Origin: Cyanidioschyzon merolae
Lineage: Eukaryota
Length of the DNA: 64,000 nucleotides
Direction: 5' to 3' (one strand)
NCBI GenBank assembly: GCA_000091205.1
Contig: AP006501.2
In this document: piece after piece, positions 1 through 59,606 of the stretch
Layout: each line of letters opens with the position of its first letter
How positions within the stretch are numbered: the stretch's first letter is position 1
Notes under the pieces: generated by a model
Told to the model about the DNA's origin: nothing
The model's database searches: none
What the model saw: only the letters and a program-made list of their open reading frames with translations
Made by a program: the position numbers and the translations under genes

Positions 1-1016
1 TGGGACGTGTGATATCAGCGGTCTCGAGTCACGGAAAAGTGAGAGCGGAAAGGCAGCCTCCGTAGGAGCCGTGCTCTCTCGATCGGGGAACACCCAACTT
101 GTCCGTCTTCAGTTTCGGGCTCCGACTCGATGGGGTACAAGAGGGCATCACACGCCAAAGCAACGAAGCATGCGCTGCGTTCAGCCGTAGCCGCAGGTTC
201 CGCTCCTGCCCCGTTCACGTTTCACCGCTTCTGACGACGCTTATAAAGTCACGGGGGTGGTATCGAGCTGTGTTCTGCATATAATTTTCAAGACAAGGCG
301 CCCGATTCCAAGTGCTCGGTGTCCAGACACCCGCCATATGAGTCAACGTGCATGCTGGTCGATGTCATCATCGGATATGTGCTCAATGAACTTTCCTATT
401 TAGGTAGCTCGCAAACTCGACGGACGCAGCCCTTCATGCATTCAGAGTATACGCAATCCCAAGCGCCCATCCCTTCTGTAAGGACCAAGTTTACGGCGAG
501 GACGCCAAAACGTTGCAGGAAATGCACGTGAACGGCTCCCGGTATAGGTGTGTACTGGACTCGTTGGAACGGAGCCGCTCGAACTGCCACATATCGTCTG
601 CGAAAGTGAAACCGAAACACCGACTAGGTATGAGTCAGCGATATCTGAGGCGGCTTTGACACACGTAAGCCGCCTACGCAGCGCACGTCGCACTGTTGTG
701 TTCGGGATGAAACTTCCCCAGCTGGGCTGGGTGGCACTCAGAGAGCCACCCAGTCTCGTTTACGCTATGAATATAGAATTGGTATCGGCGGGATCCGTAT
801 TCGTGCCTTCTAGAAGAGGCTGCGAAGCGGGTACGGCACCGGCGCAGGAATGGAGCGCATGCTTTTCCGCATATCGCGGAATAAAGCGAAACGGGTCCAT
901 TTTGCACACGCAGGCTGAACGATAGTCTTTCAAGTGAATCTCGTTTCATTCCCAGTTGCTGTGTATATTCGGCGGTCGAAACAAATATGAAATGAACACC
1001 ATGGATCGTTGACGAA

Positions 1017-1661
1017 TTGCCTGAAGGATATCTACACATCTTTACTGAACAATGCAAAGAGGGCTGCATTCCTCCTTCGGATTCGTCACACCACAGTACT
1101 CTGATGGTTGACGAGCACAGAAAGAAACAAGTAGATGCGCTGCATGCCAAAACCCGGTATTCACAAAGACTGTTTGCGGTCAATGGGAGACAACGACCTG
1201 TTGTTCACCTTACGGGAGATGAAAGCGACAATAGTAGCCACCATGGGCGTCTCTGTTTCTCGACAGCTCATTCGTATGGTCTCGAAAACACTGGGATACA
1301 ATCGCAAAAAAAGAGTCCTTGTTCAACCACGGCCATTTTCCACCGAAATCGCAACCACAACAAAGATCCTGAAAAGTCACTACCGGTATGAAGCAGAGGG
1401 ACGTGGGTTTGTTTTTTTTCCAGTCGGTGAAACTTCCTTCGGACGAAACGATCGGTGCGTATATGGGTATTCAGGGGCGATGGGCGCCCGGTCTACGTAC
1501 GATCGAAGTCGAAGAGAACGAGGATAACATCGTCTGCTCTAGCTGCAATGGATTCATTTGGTGGCCACAGTTTCGTTCGCAGAGAAGCCACATACCATAG
1601 CACCCTTTTCGTCGATTCATTGAAGACTGTTCTTCGACGCCTCACGGGGTCCTTCTATTAA
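1017..1661 (+). pseudogene. Tc1/mariner-like DDE transposase, N-terminal part only (HTH plus start of catalytic core), frameshifted
   Basis: ORFs 1017-1391, 1135-1527 and 1455-1661 in three frames align to Tc1 transposase. The HTH block SVS..R.L.......GY.RKK..L.....P matches Tc1 LSVSCRTVRRRLLEVGLRGCVSRKKPL. FVFFPVGETSFGRNDRCVYGY corresponds to Tc1 VVFSDESKFELFGSDGRQYVRR. ITSSALAAMDSFGGHSFV corresponds to Tc1 TVKFGGGSVMVWG. Frameshifts occur between blocks and the first catalytic Asp context is degenerate. Confidence 0.5.
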
Positions 1662-2032
1662 GCAACCTAGTGTTTGACCATTCCAGTGGCGTTCCAGCTT
1701 TTGCGGATTCTATCTGGTAATATAGCTGCTTTTCATTTCTCCGCACACTCTGTGGTTCATGCCCATCGAAGCACCGTAAGCTGTCTTATAACGTAATGAT
1801 CGCTCCACTGGGCGAATCACTGATGCGTTTAGTACACGGTAACACTCCGAGGCACGTGCTGTCTTTGTTTCGCAAACCCTTCTCCTTCCGGGAAGGTCCT
1901 CGTCCAAGGGCATAGAGAACTGCGTTTATTTCGAAGAAATAAGAAACCTGAGGGGCGAGCTGAGGTGTGCGCACTTTACCAGGTCGCGTTTGAGAAACCC
2001 CAGCGCAGCGCTTTGGCGATAGAAACGCACGC

Positions 2033-2230
2033 GGAGCTGGCGGAGCACCAAATGGCACAGAGGGCACGCGTTCGAGGACTCCCTGCATTGGTGACTTCAA
2101 CCAGTGGTAATACATGGAAGGAGTTCTTGAACTGAGACTTCAACGCTGCAATTAATAGCAGAAGATATGCGATACTGAAGATGAAACCCACGGAGCTGAC
2201 GTGATCCAGCTTTGTGGAGCAGCATCTCAA
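2033..2230 (+). pseudogene. Fanzor/TnpB C-terminal (RuvC-III) fragment with an in-frame stop
   Basis: The plus-strand frame reads LPALVTSTSGNTWKEFLN*DFNAAINSRRYAILKMKPTELT. This aligns with the element-B ORF GLLALVSTTPNGKKLMEFMNRDFNAAINIRKYALMEKRPPELT. The Arg codon of the RD motif has become TGA. Confidence 0.5.
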
Positions 2231-2367
2231 GGTCGAATTGCATCAGGAGAAGTTGATGCCAGTGGTAGGTGGCCAGTCAAAAAACGCTGGGAGGCGTCTA
2301 TGAGAAGGTGGATATATGTACCCTACATGGTGGTGGGGCATTATTTGTTTCACTGACTGTAGCGTAT

Positions 2368-3117
2368 TGGTCACTTTTCACTGTCATGAACGACAGGAAC
2401 TTTTGCGTGCCTCTTCTGTGACTGCTTCCTTTTCCTCGATCCCCGATCTGTGGATTTCAATACGCAGGTCTCGCTTGTCGATCCAGCTCCGCTATCAAAG
2501 AATTTGACGCCCAGAGTGAAGCTCCCGTCTATGCTTCGCTTGGCATTGTCGATCTCTGTGTATACAGCGTCGGTGCGACCCTCGAAGCGCTTGCTCGTCC
2601 GTATGGTCAAGTGTTCCCAGGGGTGTCCAGTGCACCTCCTCCTCCTCAGAGCGCCGTCCTGCCGAACGTTAACGCTTGCTATGTCGCTCGGTACATGCCC
2701 CTGACTGATACGGAACGCTGCCATCGGCGCCCGCACTCCGCTCCCGAGTCCGATGCCGTACCCTACGACCACGAGCTTGTTCTGGGCAACGCTCTCGGCG
2801 AGTGCGCTACCCGACGCACACGAGAGCGCTCACTGTCCCATTCAAAAACGTGTTTGTGGGAAGCGGTGTCGCTCATGGTGAATAAGCACCGAGCGGGAAA
2901 TCCAGGATACGGAACAAGTCGAGCGATATCGATCCGTCTCTGCGCTCTTCGAATAATACCTTGTCGCGTTTTTTTGCACTGGAAGCGAATGCTGCGATGG
3001 CTCAAGCCCAAGTCCGAGACCTTTCCTATGGAGAGAAAAGAGGCAGGGAGCGTCGAAGAGCGTGTCCTCTGACAGGTATGATGCTGCTCGGGATTGTCGA
3101 TTTATCGATTGCTACAA
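2368..3117. repeat. Direct repeat, copy 1 of 2 (about 750 bp, near-identical to 5587-6336)
   Basis: A sequence beginning ggtcacttttcactgtcatgaacgaca and ending gattgctacaaag recurs 3219 bp downstream. The embedded ORFs (2371-2772 minus, 2611-3072 plus) differ from their counterparts by only a few residues, implying about 97-98% nucleotide identity. No protein domain was recognised. Confidence 0.85.
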
Positions 3118-3703
3118 AGAAGGGCGGATTTTTCAACTAGAAGGATATCCATCGTCTGACGAAACAAGTTCTGTAAACTTTCTGAACGAGCTTGTGAACA
3201 AATCGTTGAAGACGCCGTGGAGGTGTTTCCTCGACAATCCAGCAGCGCGCATAGCAGCGCGCGCGAGTTGCCTTGAAACAGAAAGATCGATGACTTGGAG
3301 AATATTTAATTGCTTCAATTTACACATCATGAATGGAGAAGACTATAGTCTTCTCCATATGCATTGCATCGCGATATCACATAAATGACAAAATTTTGTC
3401 CGAGAACGTCGCATATTGCCTTTTATTCCGATGACGTGACAAACTCCAACGACGAAGAGGCCAATGATCTACATCGAAAAGACGACCGAGAATTCCAAAT
3501 TTTCGTGCGAATCGGTAAATACCCTATTCCTACACATCGAACGTTGAGGATGTGCATCCAAAACAAGTTCGGAAAGAAACCTCAAGGCGGGAGCGAACCA
3601 TGGAGTTCAGGGCTCCACGTTCATCCAACAGAGATGCAGGCTGGGAAGCGGTTGCACCAGGTCGTCTGCAGAGCCTGCCCCATGCTCTCTTCAAATCGAA
3701 TGT

Positions 3704-5002
3704 TTAAATCGACTGACAGATACGCAGCAGCCGCACTCCGTTACCAGAAGCGAGACGCTCTAGCCGCCATAGAGTATGCGCATCGACTGCGTGGAAAACC
3801 TTGTGATCCTGGAAGTCCTTGAGTATTCGTTGTATTTCGTCGCTGTGAAACCGCGGTATTTCCTGGATCACTGGTTGCAAATTCGACGGAAGTTCCTGGT
3901 CCACCCATCGGGCAGCCTGACTGCCGTCAGGGTCCCGCTGCATTGCCGGTGTTGGTCGGTGCAGAACAGAGCCCACAACGCGAGACGCCCGCACACGTCC
4001 GAGGCCCCGAGCGCTGGTCTCCGCGCATAGCACCAGTCCACGTCGCATTCGAGCCCCGAAGCGCGTAAACATGTTCCATGCGTTCAGCGGACGAAGGCTA
4101 CGAAGCGCACTGGCATGCAAGAAACGTCCCTTTTTCTGCGGATGCCGAATGCTCGTGAGTGCATTCAACAAATTCCAATCATCGATTGCAAAGAGCACAG
4201 GAACCTGTCGGACACATTGAAGTTGGCGCAGAAAAAGCCGATAAGTCCGACCAAAGGCATCCAGGTTCAACTCGGCGAGCTCACCTTCCAGTCGGCGGCC
4301 AGATTGCAAGCAGGCATCCACCAGTCCCAACAGGTTGGTATGCTGATCAGTAGACGTGGCGGTCTGGCGCGCCACATCTCCGTCCCGCGCTTCATCATCG
4401 AGGTCACTCTCCCGAAGCAGTTGCTCCGTAGGAAGACAGGTAATGGATTCCAGCGTTCGGGCATGGACCTGGCGACACGCCTGCAGGCTGTCAAGCACCA
4501 GACGAGCCTGATCGAAGAAAAGAGGTTCGCGCAACAAGCTCGCACTCCGTGCACCTCGAGGTCGCGGTGTTAGAACCACGTCACAAGAGTCGCGTTCATG
4601 TAGCCAGTGGTACAGGTTTGGCAGATAGAACACCAGCCAGTCCTGCTCACGAGCTCGCTCGACAGCGTGAAATAGACTCGTGCTCTTCCCGGAACCTGGT
4701 GGGCCACGAAGCAGCACACATCGCGTACCTTGCCAGAGCGGATCAGATCGCTCTTGAACCAGCTTCCACACGTCTGCGTCTGCCTGACGCCAAAGCAGTT
4801 TCAGGGCAGTTTTCGTTTCTGTACTGTGCCGTTTGCTGGCGTCTGCGCCGTGGACCTCCGTCCAACGAGCGAGCACCCCTTTGGGCCAAGCCTCCGGAAC
4901 CAGACGGTGACTCAACACTCGAAACTCATTAACAACAGCTGGGGTATGATACAAACGACCAAGCAGCAGACACGTGCTGAACACTGGCCTGCAAGCCCGC
5001 AT
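3704..5002 (-). CDS. DAP3: Mitochondrial ribosomal protein S29 / DAP3-family P-loop protein
   Basis: The 432-aa ORF contains LLRGPPGSGKSTSLFHAVERAREQDWLVFYLPNLYHW. This matches the DAP3 P-loop region [34 protein letters not shown]. Protein length is appropriate for the family. Confidence 0.65.
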   Translation of the reverse strand: MRACRPVFSTCLLLGRLYHTPAVVNEFRVLSHRLVPEAWPKGVLARWTEVHGADASKRHSTETKTALKLLWRQADADVWKLVQERSDPLWQGTRCVLLRGPPGSGKSTSLFHAVERAREQDWLVFYLPNLYHWLHERDSCDVVLTPRPRGARSASLLREPLFFDQARLVLDSLQACRQVHARTLESITCLPTEQLLRESDLDDEARDGDVARQTATSTDQHTNLLGLVDACLQSGRRLEGELAELNLDAFGRTYRLFLRQLQCVRQVPVLFAIDDWNLLNALTSIRHPQKKGRFLHASALRSLRPLNAWNMFTRFGARMRRGLVLCAETSARGLGRVRASRVVGSVLHRPTPAMQRDPDGSQAARWVDQELPSNLQPVIQEIPRFHSDEIQRILKDFQDHKVFHAVDAHTLWRLERLASGNGVRLLRICQSI

Positions 5003-5586
5003 GAACAGCTTGAAGCTTGGTGCTCAGGGAGCGTTCCCCGGAACGTATACTTGCCCAGTATTGCTGGGGCCGCCTCGCCAGTCGCCCCACGAGCACCGGG
5101 ACCCTGCGTTGCGATGTTGCGATCCCCGGGGAGCATTACTGAATGAGAGCAAACAAGGATCACCCAGCGCGAAGCTGTAAACGGTATCTAGGAAAGCCCC
5201 GGGTCGTCCGTTCATGACCTTGTCCACTTCATGGCGCGTAAAGCAGACATCCTTCAGGAGAACATGAGGCGCTGACGCGAGCCTGCCGCTGGTCGAGTCT
5301 GCCAGAGGGCCTAGCGCGCTGCTGCGAGCGTTTCACGCGGGCACCAGGGCTTTTCGATAGACTTGAGGACGTCGGCTGGAAGCAAGTCTGCCAGTGATGG
5401 ACACGAGGTGAGTGCATGAGATGTGCGAGTATGCCAACTCAAGCTGGAGCTGTTTCAGAGACAACCCAGACGACATATTTTCCATGGAATAGATGCAATA
5501 ATCTGGATGCGCATACAACATCAGCTGTTTCAGAATATGGAGGAAATGGGTCCAGCGCGCTCCCTCGGGCGTACATACGAACATTT

Positions 5587-6336
5587 GGGTCACTTTTCAC
5601 TGTCATGAACGACACGAACTTTTGCGTGCCTCTTCTGTGACTGCTTCCTTTTCCTCGATCCCCGATCTGTGGATTTCAATACGCAGGTCTCGCTTGTCGA
5701 TCCAGCTCCGCTGTCAAAGAATTTGACGCCCAGAGTGAAGCTCCCGTCTATGCTTCGCTTGGCATTGTCGATCTCTGTGTATACAGCGTCGGTGCGACCC
5801 TCGAAGCGCTTGCTCGTCCGTATGGTCAAGTGTTCCCAGGGGTGTCCAGTGCACCTCCTCCTCCTCAGAGCGCCGTCCTGCCGAACGTGAACGCTTGCTA
5901 TGTCGCTCGGTACATGCCCCTGACTGATACGGAACGCTGCCATCGGCGCCCGCACTCCGCTCCCGAGTCCGATGCCGTACCCTACGACCACGAGCTTGTT
6001 CTGGGCAACGCTCTCGGCGAGTGCGCTACCCGATGCACACGAGCGCGCTCACTGTCCCATTCAAAAACGTGTTCGTGGGAAGCGGTGTCGCTCATGGTGC
6101 ATAAGCACCGAGCGGGAAATCCAGGATACGGAACAAGTCGAGCGATATCGATCCGTCTCTGCGCTCTTCGAATAATACCTTGTCGCGTTTTTTTGCACTG
6201 GAAGCGAATGCTGCGATGGCTCAAGCCCAAGTCCGAGACCTTTCCTATGGAGAGAAAAGAGGCAGGGAGCGTCGAAGAGCGTGTCCTCTGACAGGTATGA
6301 TGCTGCTCGGGATTGTCGATTTGTCGATTGCTACAA
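5587..6336. repeat. Direct repeat, copy 2 of 2 (near-identical to 2368-3117)
   Basis: Same sequence as 2368-3117 with a few substitutions, for example ORF 5830-6291 against ORF 2611-3072. It is in direct orientation and lies on the other flank of the DAP3-like gene. Confidence 0.85.
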
Positions 6337-6984
6337 AGCGAAGAGTCATCGACTTTTCGGAAAACATCGGTTAATTGGCCTGATAGATTCACAGATCTTT
6401 CATCATGATCACTGAGACGAGACTCCAAGGGATAGGTCGATGTTTGTCCTCGTCAATGTCGCAGCGCGAATTGTTGCTCCCGCAAGCTGCCCTGAGACAG
6501 AGGGATAAAAAACTACATGTACGCATGATTTCAGCATGCTACAAGTAATAAAAGGAGCATAAATGAGACTTGTTCATAGCAACTGACGAAACATATCTGC
6601 TACTTACATAAACCTCGTTCAAGATCAGCGCGAGTCACCGCAATGCTCGTGATGCTACGAAATCCAGCGGCAACGCGTCGAATGAGTCACGCTGAAAAGA
6701 CAACTGCGAATCCTAAATCTACGTAAACATCTGTCATTTCGATGCTGTACACATAGAAAAAAACCCGGAAAACCTTCGTACAGGAGCAGAGTAAGCATTT
6801 CCGCGTTCTATATGCATCCGTAACCAGTGTCGCACGCCCATCGCTCGTGCAAACATCGTGCCACAGTAGACCGCAGACACAGATGCTCCAGGTTGAAGAC
6901 GCTCACCTACACTACATGCAGTGCTTCATATTACCAGATCCATAAAATATTTAGGGAAGGGCTCGGATACCTCACCGCAGGTTC

Positions 6985-10989: not shown

Positions 10990-13745
10990 GCTCAGCTTAG
11001 CATACACCATGCGGTGCATCGTTTGGTTTCACGCGATGCCTCGCTTCCAGCCTCAGCGCGCAACGCTCCTCGAGATGTGTGTACGTCATCCTAAACGCAT
11101 CGATGGGAATCGAATACCATCGATGCCTGTTCTCGTTGCACACTCTAGGCGAAGGAGCTGGTGTGTTAACTTTTTTTGGGAACCGTGCGCCCTGCTCCGT
11201 ACGCTACTACGAGCCTCTGACTCTGGTCCTCCGTGAGGGCGCTCATCTGATTAAAAAAGTTGGCGAATGCAAGCCGTTTCCCTTTGCACAAGTTCAGTCG
11301 CTGACGAGCCCACCTGGGCTTTGTATACTCTTTCCGTAGCGCCTCGTCATGAGCAGCTTGAGTTCCCGTGGATTCCCGAAAAGCTTCAAAGGCCGCTTTG
11401 CGGCCCGTCAGTTTGTTCATCGCTTCCAGATGCTTCTTCATTCCTGAATTCCACGTCTCACTCTGTTTCCTTGCATTCATTATACCCGATTCTTGGTGAT
11501 ACCTCGCTCTTGAGAACTTTCAAAGACGCATGCCTTTCTGAAGTAAGTTGCCGTCGATACCATCTTTCGCACACTTGCGTGCAGCAATGGTTACGATCTT
11601 CGTGTTCTCGGGGCGAAGAGCAACGACAAATTCGTTCTCCTACGGGTTATACGTTCCAGGATCTGCCTCCTTTTTTTCTTCATGTTCCGCCAAGGGCGAC
11701 AACAAAGACGCATTAGGTCGATCCACCTTCAAGCGCCTGTAGTGAATGCATGTGGACACTCCATCGATATCGAACATCCCCGTGAATACCTTTTGCTTGC
11801 TGATTTTGAGACGTTTGAAATTGAAGATGTTCTTCCAGTACGTCTCCCGGTTTTCGCCGGTGAAGTCCTCCCTGCTAACATAGAACTCGGGACAGATCTG
11901 CTTCATGATTCCATGAAGGATTCTGGAGTCGATACTCACAAAATGTGACCTGATGTTGCACAACAGAACGATGTTGAAGCGCTTCCCCGTTAGGAAAGCC
12001 TTCCGTCTCTCCCACTCTTCATTTTTTCTCGACACGCCTCCTTTTCGGCCTTGCGTTCGAGTTCTCGATTCAAAAACACGAAATAGCGTAGCACGAGGTG
12101 ATAGCATCTTTCTTCATCTTTTATCATATCTGATCCCTGTTCTGTTGGGTTGACAAGCCCCGAGACCGCACGGTGCTCTTGAAAAGCCGCACGGATCACA
12201 GAAGCTTCATTCTTTCTCCTGGCTGATGCCTTCTTGTTGACGAATTCGATCTCCTGTTTATTCCTACAATTCTTCGTGATGCCGTTGATGATGGCCCATA
12301 TCGTTTTGCGAGAGAGGCCCGGGTAGAGTGCAAACACGGCGCGTATCACGAAACGTTCGATATTCACGATCATATGGTTCCTCGGGCTCGTGGGGTATCT
12401 CATCGCCCCGTATTCGGAAATACGCGAGTCACCCCTGTATCCAGTACCGTCGAAGCGGTATTTGGCGTGATTTTCGTGGAGGGCATGCACTCGCTCATTT
12501 TTCGTCGACGCGTCCCCTGTGCCAACCATCAGGTGACGAATAAAGTTCATGTTGAGAAACTCTTCCGAAACCTCGACTGTTTTGATGTCCGTCACGTCGT
12601 GATACATCCCCTGCACCAAATGCATCAGCCCTGAAGAAGCCTCACGAACACTCATGGAGTACGAATCGACATGGTTTCTGATGGATTCTCGCAACGTTTC
12701 CTTCTACGAGTCCTTGATAGGTCCAAGAGGACAGGCTTTCACAACCATATCGTCGTGCTGTCGTCATTCTGGGAGCTTCTGACATTGGACCTCCCGATTT
12801 TGCCTCTTCCTTTTGTCTTGCACTTCTGCGCTTGGTACTTTTGTTCGTTTTTTCTTATGCGGCAGCTGGCGGCACCTGCCCTCCAGGATCCTTCATTTCC
12901 GTGTCCAGGACTTTCCTTTGCTATTTTTTTGAAAAAAAAACGCACATTGAACGCTTCTGTTATGAAACACGTAAAATCACTTGAATACACTAATGTGAAC
13001 GTTGAAAGACGATTGAATTGAAACACTATAATTTGCAATGACTTGAACGCAGATGCAACTTGTACGTCGAAGCGACAAGTCGACGAACGGTCAGGATCGC
13101 GTTACATTTCAACGGCGACATGCGTGTCGCGTCTCGTGAAGGCCTGATCTCCCAGGTGCGCATATCGAACCTACTATATAGAATAAAGAGCAGAGACTCT
13201 AGATTCACCCGCAAATATGAATAGCCATATTTCTTTCCCCTCTACGATACACGTTAAACGCGGGAAAAGTTTCTTTATTGCGGATAGTTTGCTTCATAGG
13301 CGATGGGTCCCGCGAACCGGACGAGTCTGTCGAGGATGTGCTTCATGCGACTCTGCAGTACCGAGCGCTGTAGTGAGACCCCAGCAGCTCGTCGGCAACG
13401 CAGTCTATTCTGGGACTAGGGCCAGTTAGGCTGCGTCTGTGCGTCACCCTGGTCGCGGTGGACTCCTAGTATATCGCTTCGCGCTGCCACAGGAAGTACG
13501 CCAGTCCGCGCGGGTTTCAGGCTCCTAGAATGATAATGTATACCGATTCCATGTTGAATGAACCACGCCTCGGGCCGATGCTCCCAGTTGTATGGCAAAG
13601 CCGTTGCGTCCCCGGGCAGCATCTGCTTCAGCGGTATGCAAGCGCTACAGTGGGTGCTCGAAGCAGGCACTCGGCGCACCAAAGAACATACGAAACAACC
13701 AGTATATCCGAGAGGAATTATCGGTAATGGAACTTGAAGGTATGG
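10990..13745 (-). mobile_element. Fanzor/TnpB-like transposon, degenerate copy A (about 2.7 kb)
   Basis: Nucleotide and protein homology to 38255-40795 runs along the full length. Shared landmarks include APCSVRYYEPLT, [28 protein letters not shown], KRLAFANFFNQMSALTEDQSQRLVVAYGAG, LPxAARSDxLGVHxDQGDA, and the terminal motif ACGAAACAACCAGTATATCCGAGAG. The 3' (RuvC-III) end is diverged or lost. Confidence 0.55.
11166..12694 (-). pseudogene. Fanzor/TnpB-like nuclease pseudogene (copy A), with in-frame stops and a lost RuvC-I Asp
   Basis: Minus-strand ORFs 11990-12694 (234 aa, starts with Met), 11640-12107 and 11166-11480 together form one gene. Hand translation of the minus strand across 11560 gives [56 protein letters not shown]. 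This is the RuvC-I position but reads ALRPEN where copy B reads GADPGN, and it contains a TGA stop. The N-terminal 200 aa are about 50% identical to copy B. Confidence 0.5.
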
Positions 13746-14311
13746 TGCGGAATGATGGACACAATCTCGATTACCAATGTCCGTCGTGCAATCTGGGATT
13801 CACGGACAATGGAAACCTCATCGAAAAATTCACCAGTGAGATCAACACTCGGGCGATCGTGCGCGCCATTGCCAGTGGCGGACACCGGATCGCACATGCG
13901 CAAACAGATACCCATATACTTATGGAGGATCGTAACTTGCTCAATTTCTATCCAGGTACTTATATATACATAAATATATAATATGGCACACCATTGGAAA
14001 TCGAATCGAAAGCGGGAACGGCCGCGGGATCCATGCGCCGATGCGCCAGGCGTACGGGCGCACGACCCGCAAGGACATCGATGCATGCGCATCGCGCGAC
14101 CGTGATGCCGCGTTTGCCGCTTCCCAGATGCGCCGTCTGCGGAATCTTTCCCTGCACAGATGCGCTCGTGTACGCCGATGATGCACCTCCACCGTGATCC
14201 AAAAACATGTGATATGCAACGTTTTTTTTCGTTGTTGTTCTGCGAACGATACGTTCACTCCTATTCGAAGAAAAAGTCACTTGAATCAATCGATCTGAAA
14301 GCGATTCAACA

Positions 14312-17103: not shown

Positions 17104-17947
17104 AAGAACGGAAGCGCAGCGCGATCAGACGGTACCGAGAGCGCCCGTGGCTATCGCGCTCGTCGGGGTGCAGAGAAAACCGCGGCGAGGCGCGCGGATC
17201 GGCGATTTGAATTTCCTGTGGATGGTGTCGTATGGATGCATGGGAGAAGGTGTCCACGAATTCCGCCATTGTTGTTGGCAACCGGGACAGCAGCCACCAC
17301 TTCAATCCAATATTGTCGAATGCCAGTAGTTAGAAGCGGGATTGGCTTTCAGAGACCATGATTCATTCATGTGAGGCTTCGGATTCTAAGCGTACCGTTC
17401 GTGGTCTTTGCGATTGGCTCACGCGAACGTCGCGCTGTTGTGCTGAAGCGGCCCGATATCACTCGGTTGTGCAGTTTCCGATCTTTCGATATACCTGCGT
17501 CAGATGAAAATGGGAATGAGAATCATAAGATCTGCTCGCACTTCTCGGTTTTACGGACTATTTATTCGATTTGTAGTTTTAGTGGTATAAGTGCAGCAGT
17601 GAGGGTTTGTGGACTCAGAGGTAGTTTTTCGGATTCTTTGTCGTGTTTTTCAGAGTGAATTGCTCGGCGCGTTGCGCTTGAATTCATTACGTCATTATCC
17701 GTACGATCATTCGGGACGCGGTCGAACGCGGTCTTATGAAACAAGAGATTAGAGTATCCAGTGTTTGGGTAGAAGCCTCCACGCTTCTCCGCATCCTTGC
17801 GTGTCGCTTGACCGGCTCCTGCGTTCTTCAAGTTTTCGATCACTCTGTGCCAAGACAACTGGCGGGTGCAGCAATTTGCGCCGTTCGACTGATAAGTGAA
17901 AATATGGCCGGGAACACGATAAACATTTCACGACAATGTAGGGAAAA

Positions 17948-18256
17948 TTAGTGTCCATTCGCAGATATCTTGCAGCTTTTTGCTGGCCGGCCATCAGCAA
18001 CCGGTTTCAGTGTAGCCAGACATGCTTCGAGCCTGAGAGGCTGCCCCATAAAGTTAGATAGCCTCAGCTCCGCGGGTCTCGTCCTGGGCACCGCGCATCC
18101 CCTGATATCGATGGTGGCAAGGAAGTCACGGTTCACGAACTCCATGCAGGCACTGCCGCTGGTTGAACGCACCTCTGCAAGGAGTCCCCGAACTCGTATC
18201 TTCTGTGCCACTACAATCTCGTCATCGTGCTGTCGGGCAAACACATTTTTTGTCAT
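17948..18256 (-). pseudogene. Fanzor/TnpB C-terminal (RuvC-III region) fragment, copy 2
   Basis: DEIVVAQKIRVRGLLAEVRSTSGSACMEFVNRDFLATIDIRGCAVPRTRPAELRLSNF aligns with copy B KVRGLLALVSTTPNGKKLMEFMNRDFNAAINIRKYALMEKRPPELTRELF. The NAAxNI core is mutated. Confidence 0.5.
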
Positions 18257-18508
18257 CTATAGCTTCTCTTCTTTTCCTGTTTTGCTGCTTGCGCCTCTTC
18301 GCTCAATGGTTGGCGAGAAGGGAATTTTTATTGGCTTTTTTTTGTCGAACCCGGCGATGACGGCCCTCCAGGATCCTCGACTTGCATGTCCATACCTCTC
18401 ACATGGATTTGTTATCTTTGATAATGAACGCAATTCTTTGTGCCCTTAGGTGAGAACCTTCTCTGAGGGTGAAGGACCTGCGGTGGAAAGTCGACATTTA
18501 CCCTGGTG

Positions 18509-19246
18509 TCACTGTGTGCTGAACGCTTCAGCGATTCGCCAAACGGTGCGGTCATTACGTTTCAGGATGGAAAACACTCCTTCGACAGGGATGAACTTTC
18601 GTGAGCACGGAGATATGATAAACAGATCTGTCACGATAGAATCGCCAAGAGCTCGAACGCAAAGGTAAGAGCAATCGTTCCGTTGTTCAATAGAAGGACG
18701 GCGCCGGACGTCAGCGAAAAGTCTTCGATGATTCGACAAAGTGGCTGGTGCTGTTTTACGAGCCCCCTCTGCACGAACGAACCTGTGGCCGCGAACTGAA
18801 TCCACTGCAGCTAGAACAGATGATGATATCCTCATTCTCGTTCAGTTCGATAGCACATACAACGGGCTCTCTCTAAGTACATACCCATGGACGCCCCCAC
18901 CGTTTCGTCCGAAACAAGTCTTATTGACCGAAAGAACGGACCGACGTTCCTGTACTTTATATCGATCGCTGGGTTTCAGGAATACTGCAGTAGCTGCACT
19001 TTCGGAGGACGAAGGCCGTGCGTGAACTCGGGCTCTTCTTTGGCAACAGTATCCCAGTGTTTTCAGGATCACCGGAACAAGCTGTTGAGGAACAGAGACC
19101 CCTGTGGCACCTACTGTATTTGCTTTTGCATCCCTTAAGGCGGCAAACGGGTCGTATGCTATCATGTACCTCAACCATTCTTCGAGAACATCAGTTTTTA
19201 TTATGGAGCGCATCTCCTTCTGTCTATCCCAGTGTTCCTCAACCAT
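18509..19246 (-). pseudogene. Tc1/mariner-like transposase N-terminal remnant (copy 2), frameshifted
   Basis: ATGVSVPQQLVPVILKTLGYCCQRRARVHARP aligns with the Tc1 HTH region. RSVLSVNKTCFGRNGGGVHGYVLRES aligns with Tc1 VVFSDESKFELFGSDGRQYVRRP, where the catalytic Asp has become Asn. SSVLAAVDSVRGHRFV aligns with Tc1 KFGGGSVMVWG in a different frame. Confidence 0.45.
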
Positions 19247-19574
19247 CTGAATACTGTTGTCTGACTGGCCTGAGGGAAAAGGGCAGTCCTCCTTTACTAT
19301 CTCGTTGCGAATATATATCCTACAGAAAATTCATTTACGATCTGTTCGGTACATTGCGTCGCGGTGTCGATCCCATGCCATACACTGCGAAAAAGCATCC
19401 GATGACACACAGCGGACATGGAACCGAATTCAGCTTGGAAGACAATACATCGATCAGGTGTCGCTCGTTTCAGCTGTGAACCGTGCGCGTCAACGGCGCT
19501 CTTGTTCGAGCAACAGCATACGTAGGAGCGAGCCTTGGACAAGGCTTCAGCGTTTCGGCTCGTTTTCACAGTAC

Positions 19575-37983: not shown

Positions 37984-38254
37984 TCCTGCGTTCTCTGTAA
38001 CAGCTCTAGGGCCTTCTGCAAGTGCCAGGAGAAGCCCACTGGCAGAGCGGGGTTCACGAAACCGAAAAGGCTACGCTTTCCGACCGATTCCACACGGTGG
38101 AACGTTTCAAGCTCGCAACAGTGCCCCTGGTTTCCTGTTCTCCAACAAGTACTGGGTCAAAAACCGTACACAAAAAGCACACACCGCCGGCAACAAACGC
38201 TTTTCAAAAGAAAGACGCTGCCGCCAGCGGTGTACAGTAGTCGCGACCGGCGCC

Positions 38255-40322
38255 CTAGAGGAAACGTCTCCAATTGACGTGCAGACGCCTTCCAGCTTTT
38301 TTCCACTGGCCACCCACTACGGCTTCCAACTTTATCTCATATAATTCCACATTCAGAGATTGTTCAATAAAGAGTTCTCTTGTCAACTCTGGGGGTCTCT
38401 TCTCCATCAACGCATATTTCCTTATATTGATGGCAGCATTAAAGTCTCGATTCATAAACTCCATCAGTTTCTTGCCGTTGGGAGTTGTACTCACTAATGC
38501 AAGTAGTCCACGAACTTTCGCGCTCCTTTCCATTTGCTCTTCCGTCAGCGTACCGTACTTTCTTATAACCTCAGGACTCCTCTGGCACTTTTCCATCTCG
38601 ACCCTCTGAAGTGTACACCCCAGTTCATGGTGTGTATAGGACGTTCGAAACTCATCTACAGGTATCGTGCCGATACGCCGTGCACACTCTTTGTACGTTC
38701 TTGTCGTTGGAGCTGGCGAAGTTCCTTGCTTGGGTCTTCCGTCGCCCTGCTCCGTACGCTACTACGAGCCTCTGACTTTCATCCTCCTTCAAGGCGCTCA
38801 GCTGATTGAAAAAGTTCGCGAATGCACGCTGCTTCCCACAATACAAATTCATTCGCAGTCGAACCCGCCGGGGCTTGGTCTACTCCTCCTACAGCGCATC
38901 CCAATGAGCAACACGAACTTCCATGAATTTCCGTAGAGCCTGAAAGTCCGCTCCTCGGCTTGTCACCTCGCTCAAAGCTTCCAGGTGCTCTTTCATTCCT
39001 GCATTTCACTTCTCAATTTTCTTCCTCGCATTCATTATACCGGATTCTCGATAGAATCTCGCTCTCGAGAACCCCAAAAGACGCATGTCTTTCTGACGTA
39101 AGTTAGCATCAGTACCATCTTCCGCACGCTAGGGTACTGCGATGGTTATGTTATTTGTGTTTCCGGGATCCGCGCCAACGACAAAGTCGTTATCTTGCAC
39201 CTCCTGCGTCGCAGGATCCGCCTCCTTCTCATCTTCATGCATCGTCGCGCCAACGACAAGGTCGTTATCTTGCACCTCCTGCGTCCCAGGATCCGCCTTC
39301 TGCTCATCTGCATCCTTCGTCACGGGCGCAGCCGAGGGAGGGACTGGGCGATCTGTCTTCAACCGCCGATAGTGTATACACAAGGCTACTCCATCGGTTT
39401 CGATCATCTCAGTGAATACCTTTTGTTTGCTGACTTTGAGACGTTTGAAATCGAAGATACTCTTCCAGTACGTCTCACGGTTTTCACCGGAGAATTTCTT
39501 CCTGCTAACATCGGACTCAGGACTGATCTCGCTCATGATGCTGCAAAGACGCCAGAGTGGATAGTCACAAAATGTGACTTGATATTGTACATTGGAACAA
39601 CGTTGAAGCGCTTCCCCATTAGGAACGCCTTCCGTCTCTCCCACTCTTCATTTTTTCCTCATTCAGCCTCATCTCTGCCGTGCGTTCGAGTTCGCGGTCC
39701 AAAAACACGAAATACCTCAAGATGAGGAGGTAGTATCTTTCCTTATCTTTTCCAACTCTGATATCTTGTCTGCTGGATTAACCAGCCCCAAGACTGCACG
39801 GTGTTCCTGTATAACCGCACGGATTAGAGAAGCTTCATTCGTGCACTCATTCGACGCCTTCTTGTCAACGAACTCGATCTCATCTTCATGATGGCGATCG
39901 TTCGTGATGCAACTGATAATTGCCCATTTTCCTGCGCGAGACAGACCCAGGTAGAGTGCAACCACGGTGCGTATCATGAAACGTTCGAAGTTCGCTGTCA
40001 AATGGTTCTTCAGATTCGCGAGGTACTTCATCGCCCCATAGCTGTAAATATCCCAGTCACCCTTGTACCGAGTACCCTCGAACCCGTCAAAGGGATGTTT
40101 TTCGTGGAGAGCATGCACTAGCACATTTTCCCTCCGCGCTTTCTCTGTACCAAGCATCAGGTGACGAATAAAGGTCTTGTCGAAGAACTCGCCGGGAATC
40201 TCGACCGTTTCCATGTGCGTCCCGTCGCGATACATCTCTCTCACCAAATGCATCAGTCTTGACAACGCGTTGACAATACTCTTGGAGTACGACGCAAAAC
40301 GTTTTTCGATAGCGTCTCGCAA
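38255..40322 (-). pseudogene. Fanzor/TnpB-like RuvC-fold nuclease gene (about 640 codons) disrupted by in-frame stop codons
   Basis: Minus-strand ORFs 39717-40322 (201 aa, starts with Met), 39129-39644, 38779-39009, 38652-38852 and 38255-38596 are collinear pieces of one gene. Hand translation keeps a single frame from RuvC-I through HDTCR but passes TAG, TGA, TAG and TAG stops; the first three are AVP*, IEK* and DAL*. One frame change occurs before the RuvC-III exon-like piece. About 257 aa separate RuvC-I from RuvC-III, which is appropriate for Fanzor. A possible degenerate Cys-pair segment (VCTAYRHDTC ... GCTLQRVEMEKC) precedes RuvC-III. Confidence 0.55.
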
Positions 40323-40795
40323 CTTTTGTTTATGGGGATCCTTGATATATCCAAAAGGGTCCGCCAGGCTCGCGCTTCATGCTCCCGCCAGTACTTACTG
40401 CTGTAGCGATATCTAAGCGACTCGTCGAGAAACGCTGGTCATTCTGGGCTCGGGGCGGGTAGCCTGCGTCAGGGGCGTCGCCCTGGTCGCAGTGGACTCC
40501 TAGCGTATCGCTTCGCGCTGCTGCAGGCAGTAGGTCTAACTGCACATCTCCCAGGCTTCCAGAATGTTGACGAATCCCGATTCCGTATTCAATGAAGCAT
40601 TCCTCGATCCGATACCCCCATGGATATGGCAAAACCGTTCTGTCTCCATTCAGCATCCGCACTAGCAGCATCGGCTCTATTGCGGATGCAGCAATGCAGG
40701 TACTCAGCGCACGATGGAACATACGAAATTACCAGTATATCCGAGAACAGACCATGAAACTTGGCGTAAGAGCGAAGCATATTGAGCACTGGCAT
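38255..40795 (-). mobile_element. Fanzor/TnpB-like transposon, copy B (about 2.5 kb, better preserved)
   Basis: Homologous to copy A over its whole length. It carries a recognisable RuvC-I motif ([20 protein letters not shown] 39129-39644) and a RuvC-III motif (LMEFMNRDFNAAINIRKYAL, ORF 38255-38596) in the TnpB order. The 5' terminal motif is ACGAAATTACCAGTATATCCGAGAA at about 40725-40750. Confidence 0.6.
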
Positions 40796-40983
40796 TGATT
40801 CCAATATCCACCCCACAATCTAGAATCCATGATCCATACAAACGTCTTCTCATCGAAGAAATGGCTTCAGCAGCCACAACGCTACCGACGACGACGTCAA
40901 TTACAATAACGCAATCTGGCATACATTATCTGGAGCTAGCGTTGTACCGGGAGTCTGCGTGCCTCGGTCGCTAGTCGACGTCC

Positions 40984-48094: not shown

Positions 48095-48190
48095 TGGCGT
48101 CGATGGTGGCAGCGCACACCACGGCACGACGATAGGATGTACGAAACGACCAGAATATCCGAGAAGAAGTGCAGGTAATGTAACTTGGAG
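48095..48190 (-). mobile_element. Orphan fragment of the Fanzor-element 5' terminus
   Basis: The sequence acgaaacgaccagaatatccgagaagaagtgcaggtaatgtaacttggagg is about 80% identical to the terminus of copy A (acgaaacaaccagtatatccgagaggaattatcggtaatggaacttgaagg, about 13695-13745). It also matches the terminus of copy B at about 40725-40790. No adjacent Fanzor coding sequence is present. Confidence 0.4.
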
Positions 48191-49727
48191 GTAGCGGGTT
48201 TGATGGATACTTTGCCGCGTACTGAGAAAAAAACACACAAAAAAAGCAGGAAAAGAAAAATGCGCATAATCGGAGAACGCTGGACTAAGTAAACGTTTTG
48301 TCAATGAAAAAAAAACACGGAGCGGCCGCTCGGCGCAACCAGTGCGCACCCTGGAGGCGACACGAACGGCACCGGAGGCGCGCCATTGCGATGCTTGCGC
48401 TAACGATTGTGCTGCTCAGGAAGGATATACTGGGAGGCACGGCTCATGCTCGGGAAGCGAGCAGATTCGCGAACAGCATGCCAACGTGATCGTTGTCGCA
48501 GGGGCTGGGGGCGGGCATCGAAGAGCAGGCGACTATCCGGTCAGCGATGCACCATCGAGTCGTGTGCATGTGAACGATACCGAGTGCTAGAGCCGGTGTA
48601 TCAACTCGTCACCAGGTCGTTATCTTACCCAGGTATCGTTGGAGTACTTGGGTATCGTCAAAGTTGTGGATGCTGGCATGCTACTCCTGGAGGTCCTTCG
48701 TGAATGCATCTGTACTGATCGGTTGCCACGATGTGGGGGAATTCGCAGCAACGACGCCAACAGAGACGTCGTCGATGTCGGTCGTTTGACGTTTTGCACT
48801 TGTCTCGATGCAGAGGATCTGATCGCGTCCGTTTGCTGCTTATCCAAACGTGTGCCTCCAGCTAGCACTGCCTACGAACAAGATGCGGTTCCGCTGATGC
48901 GAATGCGCAGCATCCTGACGAGTTCCCGCGGAAGCGCACATACGTCGATTGCTCAGCACCCTCAAACACGAGATACGAGGATATGGTCGCTATGTGGTTT
49001 ACGATCTACATGGATGTAATGAGCGTGTGACGATGGTTTGGGAGCGATGCGGGCCTCGTCGATATCACCGCCGAATCTGAAGTATGCGCCGTCGATGTGG
49101 CATCGTCGCAGAGAGAACATAGAGCGCAGCGTTTTTCACGGTCAACGGTATGTGAGTGTATCTGACAATGGACCAGCAAATGCGTACTTTGAGCAGGAGT
49201 GACCGCCGTGCACCATTGGTGGTGAAGGGAGTCTCGGGCGAGATAGCGGGGACCGCCAGCATCACCTCGTCTTTCTGGAAAACCCCATGAATTCAAAGAA
49301 ACGAGAATCGACGCGAATGCTCACAATAGCAATCATATCGTTCTGATCGTCCAATTGTTGAAGACGTCAACTGCAAAAACTCAGTTTACGTCAGAAAACG
49401 GGATCGGATGCGAATCCATACCATATCATCAAGCCGCTGCACTGTTGCGTGTCGAAGACGTGAAACTCGAATCCAAGTGCGCATTCCCTTGAGGCAGTTG
49501 CATCGTCGCACCTGGGCCTGGAGCTCCTGGTAAATCTGGGTGTCTTGCAAATGTTCCGCTTCAGGGGCGATGCGCGGCACTACAGGGGAAACACCCAAGG
49601 TCAACGGCGGCCTCGCTCAAGCTGGTGACACCCTACTCGAATGTCGATGCGCGAGATCCCAGCTTGCATGCCCTACTGCGGCATCTGCTGCTCAGCCTCT
49701 TGTGCGCGTTTTGCATCATCGTGACAG

Positions 49728-52777: not shown

Positions 52778-52885
52778 GGTGTTCCTATATGTTCACCGTG
52801 TATGCGTATCCTCGGCGCGTCGTCTTGTGGAAGGTGTTCCTATATGCTCACCGTGTATGGATATCCTCGGCGCGTCGTCTTGTGG
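52778..52885. repeat. Tandem duplication, 2 x about 55 bp
   Basis: ggtgttcctatatgttcaccgtgtatgcgtatcctcggcgcgtcgtcttgtgg is followed by the near-identical ggtgttcctatatgctcaccgtgtatggatatcctcggcgcgtcgtcttgtgg. Confidence 0.7.
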
Positions 52886-54147
52886 CGCGTCGACGCGTGT
52901 ATCATCGCTTGGTATACGCTCTTGACGAGTACGGAAAGCTGCCGTCGATGGTCTCTTATGCTTACGCTTCTGTGTGATTCCGTCGGCAGCGACTCTGCTC
53001 GTTGCACACACAAGCGCACGCTGTCCTAGTCGATTGGGAATTTGCGGAACGCGATGCTGTCCACAATGAGACAAGAACCGGAACGAATATCCAGGATGCA
53101 GGAGAGGCTGAGCACTGCCGATCCGTCTACGCTCCATTCTTGAAAAGCGTTGACACACGAATCACTGGAAGAGATCGCTGCGATGAATCAGACTCCAGTC
53201 GAAGATGCTTTCTCATTCAAACAGAAGGGATGGGTGCGTCTAGTCGCATATCCCTTGAGAGGGATTTGCTGCGGTGGAATGCGGTTTTTTGTTAACGGCC
53301 ATGAAAAGAATAAAAAATTCGTCGTTCCAACGGTATCGCTCATTTTTTGGTATGAGAAGTTTGGTGCGCATTTAGCATGAGCTTTTGCACTGGCCATCAA
53401 GCGACGACTTCGAGTTCCTGTCCCCGTCAATCCAGCAGCGCGAATTGCTGCGCCCACATGCTGCCTTGGTACAGAGAGAACCCAAGCTTAAAGAATGCGT
53501 AATCGAACACGCTTCAGGCATGGAAAGGAGAATACTTGACGCTCGTGCGAATGAGTGTGTTCATGATTCCGGTTCTGACACGATGCCGTGCTCGAGAACA
53601 TCGCGAATTATCTTGACTCCTAAATCGTATTCTATTCCAGCTGAGAAGCGTCAAAAGAGTCACTCCGAACAGACTTCAGAGCATCCGAAACCTACGTATG
53701 CGTTCGTTAACTACTATCCGTATTCCGCCAATGTCCAGATTGTGTATCAGAAAAGTTTTGGGAAACATCGCAAGGCAGGTACACAGCGCGTCCTCCAATG
53801 TTTTGTATTCAAGAGGTACGTGTAATCTGTCCATATATTCTAATATTGGGTATAAAGGAACAGACCCTGACATACAGTCTGGAGAATTTGTCCGTATTAG
53901 TTACAAAATATACATCTATGTATCATGACATAGAGCCTGCAACGAGGGCGCCCATTTCCCCATACATCAGCGGTGTCGTCGATGACTCGCCGCTTCGCCA
54001 GCCGCGGACGCCGAACTCATTCTGCCAGCCTATTCAAGAGGGAAAGAAAGCCCAGTGTACTTCGGTTGCTGGAGAACCCACACGTGGCGTCAGCGGTAAC
54101 GCCCAAAGGCCTCTTTCGGAAGCAAGGGCATCCGCAATAAAATTCGC

Positions 54148-57847: not shown

Positions 57848-58766
57848 ACTGGAACGGCAGTAGACTTCGATGGCGGACTGGTTTTTGTATGCATATGTGA
57901 TACGGTATATGTAAAACTGGGTATCGAACTTGCAGCGCTGATAAACGTGGCAGTAGACTTCGATGGCGGACTGGTTTGTATGCATATGTGATACGGTATA
58001 TGTAAAACTGGGTATCGAACTTGCAGCGCTGATAAACGTGGCAGTAGACTTCGATGGCGGACTGGTTTGTATGCATATGTGATACGGTGTGTGTAAAACT
58101 GGGTATCGAACTTGGAGCGCTGATAAACGTGGCAGTAGACTTCGATGGCGGACTGGTTTGTATGCATATGTGATACGGTGTATGTGAAACTGGGTATCGA
58201 ACTTGGAGCGCTGATAAACGTGGCAGTAGACTTCGATGGCGGACTGGTTTGTATGCATATGTGATACGGTGTATGTGAAACTGGGTATCGAACTTGGAGC
58301 GCTGATAAACGTGGCAGTAGACTTCGATGGCGGACTGGTTTGTATGCATATGTGATACGGTGTATGTGAAACTGGGTATCGAACTTGGAGCGCTGATAAA
58401 CGTGGCAGTAGACTTCGATGGCGGACTGGTTTGTATGCATATGTGATACGGTGTGTGTAAAACTGGGTATCGAACTTGGAGCGCTGATAAACGTGGCAGT
58501 AGACTTCGATGGCGGACTGGTTTGTATGCATATGTGATACGGTGTGTGTAAAACTGGGTATCGAACTTGCAGCGCTGATAAACGTGGCAGTAGACTTCGA
58601 TGGCGGACTGGTTTGTATGCATATGTGATACGGTGTATGTAAAACTGGGTATCGAACTTGCAGCGCTGATAAACGTGGCAGTAGACTTCGATGGCGGACT
58701 GGTTTGTATGCATATGTGATACGGTGTATGTGAAACTGGGTATCGAACTTGGAGCGCTGGTAAACG
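57848..58766. repeat. Minisatellite: about 10 tandem copies of a 91-bp unit
   Basis: The unit ggcagtagacttcgatggcggactggtttgtatgcatatgtgatacggtgtatgtgaaactgggtatcgaacttggagcgctgataaacgt recurs at 57856, 57949, 58040, 58131, 58222, 58313, 58404, 58495, 58586 and 58677. The first copy has a 2-bp insertion. Point variants (gtgtatgtga/gtgtgtgtaa, ggagcg/gcagcg) mark alternating subtypes. It starts 62 bp after the BMS1 stop. Confidence 0.9.
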
Positions 58767-59379
58767 TAGAGAGCGCGCCACCCAGCCAACGCCGATGCTG
58801 ACTAGGATCCCCGCGCAATACCATAGTCACCTGTCTGACGTTTCCTTGGCGCAGTTGTTTTCAGTCTACCAAATAAGAGCGCCGCGTGTGTACTGAGGAT
58901 TGCTAGCGCTGCACACCGGATCGAGTAGCACCTGCCGTCGTGTGGAACGCCTCGACTAGAGCGTTTGCTGTTTCGGCGCCCTGCGTTGCTTCCAGATCTG
59001 CTGCTCATGTTGCTGTACGTAGTATGGTGGACGTGCATGGCCATGGACCCCTGGTCGAAGCATTGAAAGTAGCGAGCATAGGCATGCACGAAACAGCTGT
59101 TGTCTCAATGCAAGTTCGCTGTATCGAAACGCGTACCGGATGCAAGGTTAACGTTATTTTAGAGGGACATTAAAGCACTCGGATGGCTGCTCGGGTACCA
59201 GGCACCTCGGAAGCTACACCCACACCTACGCGATCAACAAGCGCGTCCACCAGTCCAGGATGCTTCGGAATCGTGCGTTCTGCAGACATCGATGCAAGCA
59301 TCTATTCGCAACTGGACAGGTAATGATAGAAGCAGCTGCCTCTGACGTACAATTCGTGCTGAGCATCGTGGACGCGATG

Positions 59380-59606
59380 CATCCTAATGGCAAAAATACA
59401 GATATTCGACGGCATCTGATGAATCAATCGAACAAGCACGACCTAGGATGTCTACCCTGCACACCGATCACCGTCACTGAGCGATAGATGCTTACATCCT
59501 AATGGCAAAAATACAGATATTCGACGGCATCTGATGAATCAATCGAACAAGCACGACCTAGGATGTCTACCCTGCACACTGATCACCGTCACGGAGCGAT
59601 AGACGC
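59380..59606. repeat. Tandem duplication, 2 x about 115 bp
   Basis: catcctaatggcaaaaatacagatattcgacggcatctgatgaatcaatcgaacaagcacgacctaggatgtctaccctgcacaccgatcaccgtcactgagcgatag is repeated from 59495 with two substitutions. It lies about 340 bp upstream of the MsrA start. Confidence 0.8.

Follow-up and report, generated by a model that had tools for sequence, protein, structure and literature searches.

The window analysed here, the whole stretch of 64,000 nucleotides from Cyanidioschyzon merolae contig AP006501.2 (NCBI GenBank assembly GCA_000091205.1), has a G+C content of 54% and is densely packed with long, intron-free open reading frames (ORFs). It contains two copies, C1 and C2, of a composite element in which a broken gene for a Tc1-like transposase is followed on the same strand by remains of a Fanzor1 gene, and two copies, F1 and F2, of the known Fanzor1 element CMe-1A, F1 serving as the reference for the tail (Table 1). 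Comparing the window with itself by blastn, we found C1 and C2 to be ~67% identical on opposite strands, 958-1946 pairing with 19388-18408 (E 5e-135) and 2053-2335 with 18210-17929 (E 8e-35). This similarity is far above chance expectation and confirms that they are two copies of one composite, as had been proposed from the letters of this DNA alone (hereafter the sequence-only reading). The peptides quoted in that reading are present in the translations (GVSVSRQLIRMVSKTLGYNRKK at ~1243-1311, EFLN*DFNAAINSRRY at 2121-2168 and, on the minus strand, EFVNRDFLATIDIRG at 18098-18142), and the extents that it had given for the two copies, 995-2260 and 17948-19385, proved too narrow. The C2 locus has an ortholog in a related strain (L014, 98% identical).

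Table 1. Parts of the composite copies C1 and C2 and of the two CMe-1A copies in the window; CMe-1A positions are those of the consensus.
Feature	Position	Strand	Remarks
C1, whole element	923-2359	+	1437 bp; borders of homology with at least six copies elsewhere; 5' neighbour GA (921-922), 3' neighbour TA (2360-2361)
C1, left terminal sequence	923-948	+	TAGTCTTTCAAGTGAATCTCGTTTCA; putative terminal inverted repeat (TIR) remnant of the family; also homologous to CMe-1A 797-822
C1, transposase pseudogene	992-1842	+	IS630/Tc1-type DD34E; several frameshifts and stops; second catalytic D lost (LLLSN)
C1, remnant of spacer and Fanzor 5' untranslated region (UTR)	1919-1948	+	~CMe-1A 869-898, placed by eye; type 1 junction next to it; same junction in L006
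C1, Fanzor1 C-terminal fragment	1957-2299	+	CMe-1A 2739-3082, residues ~612-726; blastn 72%, E 8e-57
C1, right terminal 60 bp	2300-2359	+	composite-specific, unlike CMe-1A 3085-3169; then TA
C2, whole element	17905-19445	-	1541 bp; TA at 19446-19447 and at 17903-17904
C2, transposase pseudogene	18509-19354	-	one stop, several frameshifts; second catalytic D replaced by N (LLLNN)
C2, Fanzor 5' UTR and first ~56 codons (MDMQVEDPGGP...)	18215-18435	-	CMe-1A 869-~1075 (blastn maps 869-962 to 18435-18337; extension to ~1075 read by eye); missing from C1
C2, Fanzor1 C-terminal fragment	17961-18214	-	CMe-1A ~2828-3084; blastn 2849-3084 at 68%, start by eye
F1, CMe-1A copy	38198-40855	-	83% to consensus; retains 1-499 and 1084-3169, without 500-1083; frameshifted
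F2, CMe-1A copy	11069-13816	-	81% to consensus; retains 13-2741; 3'-truncated, frameshifted

Both composite copies hold a full-length transposase gene (~290 residues, comprising a putative helix-turn-helix [HTH] region and a DD34E catalytic domain) in broken reading frames, and not the N-terminus alone, as the sequence-only reading had it. The interval of about 400 bp that it had noted before the Fanzor fragment is the rest of the transposase gene. The raw frames of C1 and C2 with stops masked gave no Pfam match, and a hand-corrected translation of C1 matched NCBIfam IS630 with E 2.2e-8 (below the cut-off) and Pfam DDE_3 with E 0.004. With the two corrected translations as queries, we retrieved seven ORF fragments of the same transposase family, the contigs of which gave five further copies (L005, L006, L007, L008, and L010), and from these five together with C1 and C2 a majority consensus was built. 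The consensus transposase reads MYPIDRRRIA...VSHTTVLRWL...LKTLGYSRKK...SVDETSFGRNG...LLLDNVAFHH...SPYSPWFNPIEG...KRNDR, and it matches DDE_3 with E 7.7e-22 (78 bits; cut-off 28.6) and IS630 with E 3.6e-36 (125 bits; cut-off 100) over profile positions 17-275 of 299. Its catalytic triad lies in SVDETSF, LLLDNVAFHH, and SPYSPWFNPIE, with 34 residues from the second D to the E, which identifies the enzyme as of the DD34E type. The Tc1-like identity first suggested by short motifs thus holds under profile search. A hidden Markov model (HMM) in which seven of the eight sequences are intact relatives from other metagenomes, and which is therefore mostly independent of the window copies, also finds the gene in C1 (E 4e-39, nucleotides 1024-1866) and in C2 (E 8.5e-40), as does tblastn with the transposase of one such relative, L033 (E 2.4e-19 and 7e-22, respectively). 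For the N-terminal part, Pfam HTH_Tnp_Tc3_2 scored under its cut-off on the consensus (E 4e-4; 20.9 bits against 31.5); it can be aligned with the corresponding part of the intact relatives, whose own HTH matches also fall under the cut-off. A phmmer search of PDB sequences with the consensus transposase found no detectably similar Tc1/mariner structure. An intact triad in an open frame is absent from C1 and C2.

For the Fanzor part, we used the 3169-bp CMe-1A consensus with its ORF at 906-3110 as reference (PMC3627910 supplement 2). Fanzor proteins share the motif set D-X-[TS][TS]-zinc finger-RD (Bao & Jurka, PMC3627910), and in F1 the motifs GADPGNT, VDEFRTS, and NRDFNAAINI can be read. The F1 gene has 59 homologues in the protein database searched, some of them 600-750 residues long. 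A profile of 12 of these had a single match in the PDB, Fanzor1 of Spizellomyces punctatus (8GKH; E 1.7e-12 over 334 profile positions), and phmmer of the broken F1 translation against PDB sequences returned nothing useful. The sequence-only reading had recognised a RuvC-III fragment of the Fanzor C-terminus behind the transposase, and tblastn with the CMe-1 Fanzor1 C-terminus bears this out in C1 (E 1e-28) and C2 (E 2e-16). The tail of the composite has a third match in the window at 38282-38617 (minus strand), in the last ORF of the broken gene F1, and tblastx pairs the C1 tail with an intact-looking tail ORF at 38255-38596. The two peptides at 2121-2168 and 18098-18142 hold the RuvC-III motif; in C1 a stop replaces its R (N*D), and in C2 it reads NRD. 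Both copies have lost the segments that encode the D of RuvC-I (in GADPGNT) and the E of RuvC-II (in VDEFRTS), and of the motif set the RD region alone remains; the Fanzor parts of C1 and C2 are gene fragments, not Fanzor genes. Mapping onto CMe-1A further shows that the two copies carry different internal deletions and not one identical architecture, as had been thought; neither copy can therefore derive from the other, and their common ancestor had more of the Fanzor gene. In passing, we note that a unit of ~25 residues is duplicated in tandem in F1 (39171-39324), just upstream of the RuvC-I motif, the count of this unit being four in the homologue P0001, two in F1, and one in the CMe-1 consensus. 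We also considered whether the point at which F2 is cut short (2741) and the breakpoint of the type 1 deletion seen in C1 (2737-2739) reflect one common hotspot, and rejected this, because weak protein similarity in F2 runs past 2741.

Aligning the composite with CMe-1A provides a first hint of how the two are related. CMe-1A has been described as a family of ~150 copies, ~80% identical to their consensus, with "no TIRs, classification unknown", some copies of which keep intact Fanzor ORFs (PMC3627910). F1 and F2 are collinear with this consensus, whereas C1 and C2 match it only in part, at 68-72%. Positions 797-862, the spacer with the start of the Fanzor gene (to 898 or ~1075), and the Fanzor 3' part to ~3084 are common to CMe-1A and the composites. 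The first ~65 bp of the composite correspond to 797-862, and CMe-1A resumes at 866 with the sequence that in the composite follows the transposase gene; in place of a transposase segment of ~0.95 kb, CMe-1A has ~3 bp. C1 and C2, for their part, are without consensus positions 1-796, a stretch that includes TE-N2_CMe (1-635), and without ~1.7-1.8 kb of the Fanzor ORF, and their final 60-75 bp are unlike the 85 bp with which CMe-1A ends and stand in their place. As judged from these alignments, CMe-1A appears to have arisen by deletion from an IS630/Tc1-type transposon with both a transposase and a Fanzor gene. In later publications we found no link between a Tc1/mariner transposase and the Fanzor of C. 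merolae. The window also holds an isolated 96-bp fragment (48122-48217) that matches CMe-1A 60-156, a part of TE-N2_CMe, at 81%.

Scanning metagenome contigs with the consensus transposase protein yielded 80 loci. Those on Cyanidioschyzon-type contigs represent 29 distinct loci, C1 and C2 included. Thirteen of the 29 are built like C1 (type 1), the transposase being followed by CMe-1A 2737/2739-~3084; 14 are built like C2 (type 2), with CMe-1A 869-~1013 and then ~2831-3084 behind the transposase; and in the other two, TE-N2_CMe-like sequence follows. A Fanzor tail thus lies 80-370 bp downstream of the transposase and on the same strand in 27 of the 29, and the transposase frame is broken in all of them. 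The flanks of the loci are mutually unrelated, placing the copies at non-syntenic sites, and conservation over the 27 loci rises from a background of ~0.45 to 0.74-0.86 at ~920 and falls back at ~2355. Since each type occupies 13 or 14 non-syntenic loci, each must have multiplied after its own deletion. The sequence-only reading had held that transposase and Fanzor part spread as one unit, and had named independent distributions of the two across the genome as the sign of coincidental adjacent insertions. What we see is a transposase that almost never stands without a Fanzor tail, and the idea of a single unit is borne out by the tails, by the common outer borders, and by the intact two-gene relatives described below. 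Several loci depart from the common plan: in L023 and L092, TE-N2_CMe-like sequence (CMe-1A 4-636, 77-78%) lies 11-646 bp after the transposase remnant and there is no Fanzor tail; in L006, a transposase-less mini-copy (4142-4722, minus strand), consisting of CMe-1A 785-969 and 2809-3084 with a composite-type 3' end, faces a complete composite (4726-6155, plus strand) in head-to-head orientation, ~5 bp away; and L079 is a composite copy with a CMe-1A-type 3' end.

Beyond the Cyanidioschyzon-type contigs, some 20 loci sampled in brine, lakes, and further environments (G+C 30-50%) contain an intact transposase ORF of 294-303 residues, 41-49% identical, and downstream of it, on the same strand, a Fanzor1 ORF of 587-702 residues, alignable with residues 14-702 of the CMe-1 Fanzor. 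As a set, these intact relatives look recently active. The first ORF of these relatives matches Pfam DDE_3 with E 1e-23 to 1e-26, the second ORF of L058 matches Cas12f1-like_TNB with E 6e-6, and the seven-copy consensus aligns end to end with the intact transposases. In one case, a 2,981-bp element is 100% identical in three different flanks, at L058 (1040-4020), L060 (59-3039), and L062 (410-3391); its ends form a 29-bp inverted repeat, TACACTC(AGA/CGC)CAAGTGAATAATGTTACAC, with TA beside both, and it was probably active recently in a host of ~38% G+C. L042, L043, and L044 are analogous in layout. From the Fanzor stop to the right end there are 209 bp in the three-locus element and 180-210 bp to the right TIR across the relatives. 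In C1, as in the relatives, ~55-70 bp separate the outer left end from the start of the transposase ORF. Relatives that are nearer to C. merolae in the transposase are also nearer in Fanzor (L033, 49% and 42% identity; L058, 41% and 30%). The intact relatives, the HMM and tblastn matches, and this parallel divergence point to TIR-transposase-Fanzor1-TIR as the ancestral layout; and because the relatives hold both genes inside one TIR pair, the composite is best understood as one transposon and not as two chance insertions.

The ends of the Cyanidioschyzon copies fit this layout in part. C1 begins with TAGTCTTTCAAGTGAAT... at 923 and ends with ...TTTGTTTCACTGACTG at 2359. Its left end stands in the same register as the 29-bp TIR of the relatives (CAAGTGAAT...GTT.CA; p ~0.003-0.009 in a shuffle test), and for the left end of the family the p values range from 0.001 to 0.013. 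At the right border, TA lies exactly where homology stops in six of the seven copies, and at the left border in about half of them. The search for TIRs and TA duplications that the sequence-only reading had proposed found TA on both sides of C2 and to the right of C1, and yielded no significant TIR pair, local alignments on the consensus and on single copies being likewise nonsignificant. Taken together with the relatives, these sequence comparisons make it likely that the composite family had TIRs and duplicated a TA target site.

We therefore consider it very probable that C1 and C2 are ancient, dead deletion copies of a cut-and-paste transposon of the IS630/Tc1/mariner superfamily that carried Fanzor1. 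Its ancestor had the layout still seen in the intact relatives: a left TIR and ~70 bp, then a transposase of ~300 residues with two putative HTH motifs and a DD34E domain, followed by a short spacer, the Fanzor1 gene (~600-730 residues), a 3' noncoding stretch, and a right TIR. Its transposase presumably cut out the unit and reinserted it at TA sites. In the Cyanidioschyzon lineage two deletion derivatives kept the transposase and lost most of Fanzor, namely, (i) type 1, in which the Fanzor 5' UTR is joined to codon ~612 (C1), and (ii) type 2, in which codon ~56 is joined in frame to codon ~641 (C2); (iii) a third form would have lost the transposase gene almost exactly, kept Fanzor, and, with 796 bp added at the 5' end, become the abundant CMe-1A. 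The 3' end may have persisted in all three because the right end was needed in cis. The reading frames are broken in all copies seen, which speaks against any activity in this lineage, and the composite elements in the window are inert relics. Several observations weigh against this reconstruction. At none of the 29 Cyanidioschyzon-type loci is the transposase followed by a full Fanzor gene, so that the ancestral state in Cyanidioschyzon is deduced from distant relatives with 41-49% transposase identity. The seven-copy consensus is not independent of C1 and C2, because both went into it. At the termini, the right end resembles the TIR of the relatives weakly (common AA.AATGT..CAC only; p 0.05-0.3), the left and right ends of the Cyanidioschyzon copies form no significant inverted repeat (local alignment of the consensus, p = 0.26), and the left neighbour of C1 is GA and not TA. 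Finally, the different last 85 bp and the extra 796 bp at the 5' end of CMe-1A bear on whether this transposase could have mobilised it.

Two other origins for the arrangement were weighed. The transposase could be a passenger, if an independent Tc1-like transposon once inserted into the 5' UTR of a CMe-1 element with Fanzor alone and was then copied along with it; the far greater abundance of CMe-1A (~150 copies; PMC3627910) and its continuity across the site of the transposase segment would suit such a nested insertion. Yet, as read from the alignments, there is no inverted repeat where the transposase segment begins and ends, and CMe-1A has no TA where the segment is missing. The ~20 intact relatives, moreover, hold transposase and then Fanzor inside a single TIR pair, the two proteins diverge in parallel, and the distance of the ORF start from the outer left end is the same in the relatives and in C1, all of which leaves the nested insertion improbable. 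It is harder still to credit that a Tc1-like pseudogene and a Fanzor fragment came to adjoin twice by chance, even in a window as rich in repeats as this one (two copies of CMe-1A and three of a further family, X): in 27 of 29 non-syntenic loci the tail has the strand of the transposase, stands at a fixed distance from it, and shows one of the two recurring junctions, and the copies have common outer borders, which already refutes a coincidence.

Two further proposals concern what the remaining Fanzor sequence might do and leave the origin from a two-gene transposon as it stands. The sequence-only reading had suggested that the Fanzor tail was kept for its omega RNA (fRNA). Such a scaffold, if still made by the transposase-only derivatives, could be used in trans by the Fanzor of CMe-1A for homing or retention, which would add to the transposon origin; we regard this as possible, although unlikely. 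In characterised Fanzors the guide RNA derives from the end of the ORF together with the noncoding stretch that adjoins it at the right end, and runs across the TIR, and in Chlamydomonas stand-alone fRNA copies occur (PMC10530073); because the guide RNA has been mapped to that end, the retained tail is the right place for one. Both deletions, independently of each other, leave 250 bp or more at the 3' end of Fanzor in place together with the right terminus, and both derivatives multiplied; a complementary pair, GCCTCTC...GGGAGGC, conserved in sequence, spans the tail; and some CMe-1A copies have intact Fanzor ORFs (PMC3627910). Against this, the tail is not conserved above the level of the transposase pseudogene (majority agreement of 0.76-0.84 versus 0.80-0.86), and RNAalifold of the composite tails gave a weak structure (-8.2 kcal/mol) with an unfavourable covariation term and compensatory change in 3 of 22 pairs. 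The composite is also without the last 85 bp of CMe-1A, which hold a conserved hairpin, CGTCT...AGACG, and for which RNAalifold on CMe-1A 3' ends showed conservation in sequence and no covariation; no part of the window matched Rfam at gathering thresholds; and with two deletion events only, chance or transposase binding sites fit equally well. Fold z-scores of the tails were -1.7 to -3.4 (few mononucleotide shuffles). As the copies decayed neutrally, these tests of RNA conservation have low power. The other proposal, that the type 2 fusion makes a working mini-protein of ~56 N-terminal residues rich in K/R and ~95 C-terminal Fanzor residues, acting as a regulator or inhibitor of Fanzor, we find hardly believable. 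In the consensus, the type 2 fusion preserves the reading frame, and five loci have an open ORF of 66-109 residues from MAQ(K/R)A.VRG to the end, but the frame is broken at most loci, in C2 by stops at codon 22 and later, the stop in C1 replaces the R of the RD motif, and the region is as conserved as the adjoining, neutrally decaying pseudogene.

The surroundings of the composites contain further repeats. Family X has three copies in the window (2360-3700, 5588-6758, and 52864-53779) and is ~60% identical to copies at 11 of the 27 loci. On its minus strand, 3219-3387 and 6444-6723 retain a weak remnant of a related transposase HTH region (domain E ~1e-5 to 4e-7), and Pfam had no match for the ORFs of X. 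We considered X, which adjoins C1 (2360-3700) and also lies near C2, L006, and L010, as a part or a specific target of the composite and rejected it, as X is an abundant family in its own right, its distance and orientation vary, and it has no homologous junction with the composite. Two X copies, otherwise ~83% alike overall, share a 751-bp patch that is 98.9% identical (2369-3119 and 5588-6338), which looks like a recent gene conversion or partial duplication; these copies are in direct orientation and flank a DAP3-like gene (3704-5002), the ORF of which occurs with identical sequence in JGI and ENA metagenome contigs. Farther along, a tandem array of ~10 copies of a 91-bp unit (93-98% identity) occupies 57856-58767, inside long minus-strand ORFs, and a shorter tandem duplication, its period ~115 bp, occupies 59380-59623.

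If the origin of C1 and C2 from a two-gene transposon is accepted, a consequence for the role of Fanzor follows. A derivative that kept the transposase and had its Fanzor gene gutted still multiplied, which suggests that a working Fanzor encoded in cis was not needed for spread. The persistence of intact Fanzor ORFs in CMe-1A was raised as a puzzle by Bao & Jurka in 2013 (PMC3627910). It is conceivable, if rather doubtful, that the ancestral two-gene transposon split in Cyanidioschyzon into a lineage with transposase, right end, and a guide-RNA module that could still be used (the composite, at 29 loci or more) and the Fanzor-only CMe-1A, each dependent on the other in trans. Were this so, the one would have provided transposase in trans for movement and the other Fanzor in trans, together with the guide RNA, for homing or retention, and the split would account for the intact Fanzor ORFs kept for so long in the transposase-less CMe-1A. 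With the intact relatives found here, the contribution of Fanzor to a cut-and-paste transposon could be put to the test.

Nonautonomous IS605 derivatives that bear an omega RNA exist. Like such guide-RNA-only derivatives of TnpB and Fanzor elements, the composites have lost the nuclease gene and kept its 3' end with the right end of the element; unlike them, they have kept the transposase, and no conservation of RNA structure was seen in the tail. With bacterial IS630 insertion sequences and eukaryotic Tc1 they share the DDE_3 and NCBIfam IS630 matches, the DD34E spacing, and flanking TA (on both sides of C2, on the right of C1), and they differ in a transposase that, at ~300 residues, is shorter than typical Tc1 transposases and in its linkage to a Fanzor gene. 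The closest known systems are Mariner/Tc1 transposons that carry Fanzor1, such as PUl-1 of Pythium ultimum and PGv-1 (PMC3627910; PMC10530073). In these, a DDE transposase of Mariner/IS630 type lies upstream of Fanzor1 on the same strand, an order seen in the composites as well, and TIRs and TA duplications bound the element; the relatives L058, L042, and L033, among others, have this layout too. By tblastn, the Mariner transposase of PUl-1 has no significant similarity here (E ~0.1), so that the transposase belongs to a separate lineage. A Fanzor-only derivative that shares the element ends also has a known precedent in PUl-4 (PMC3627910; PMC10530073). This kind of element has thus been known since 2013, and what our analysis adds is a likely origin for CMe-1A and a set of intact relatives in metagenomes. 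In contrast to PUl-1 and PGv-1, the copies in the window are dead, and they represent the reverse derivative, in which the transposase was kept and Fanzor was gutted.

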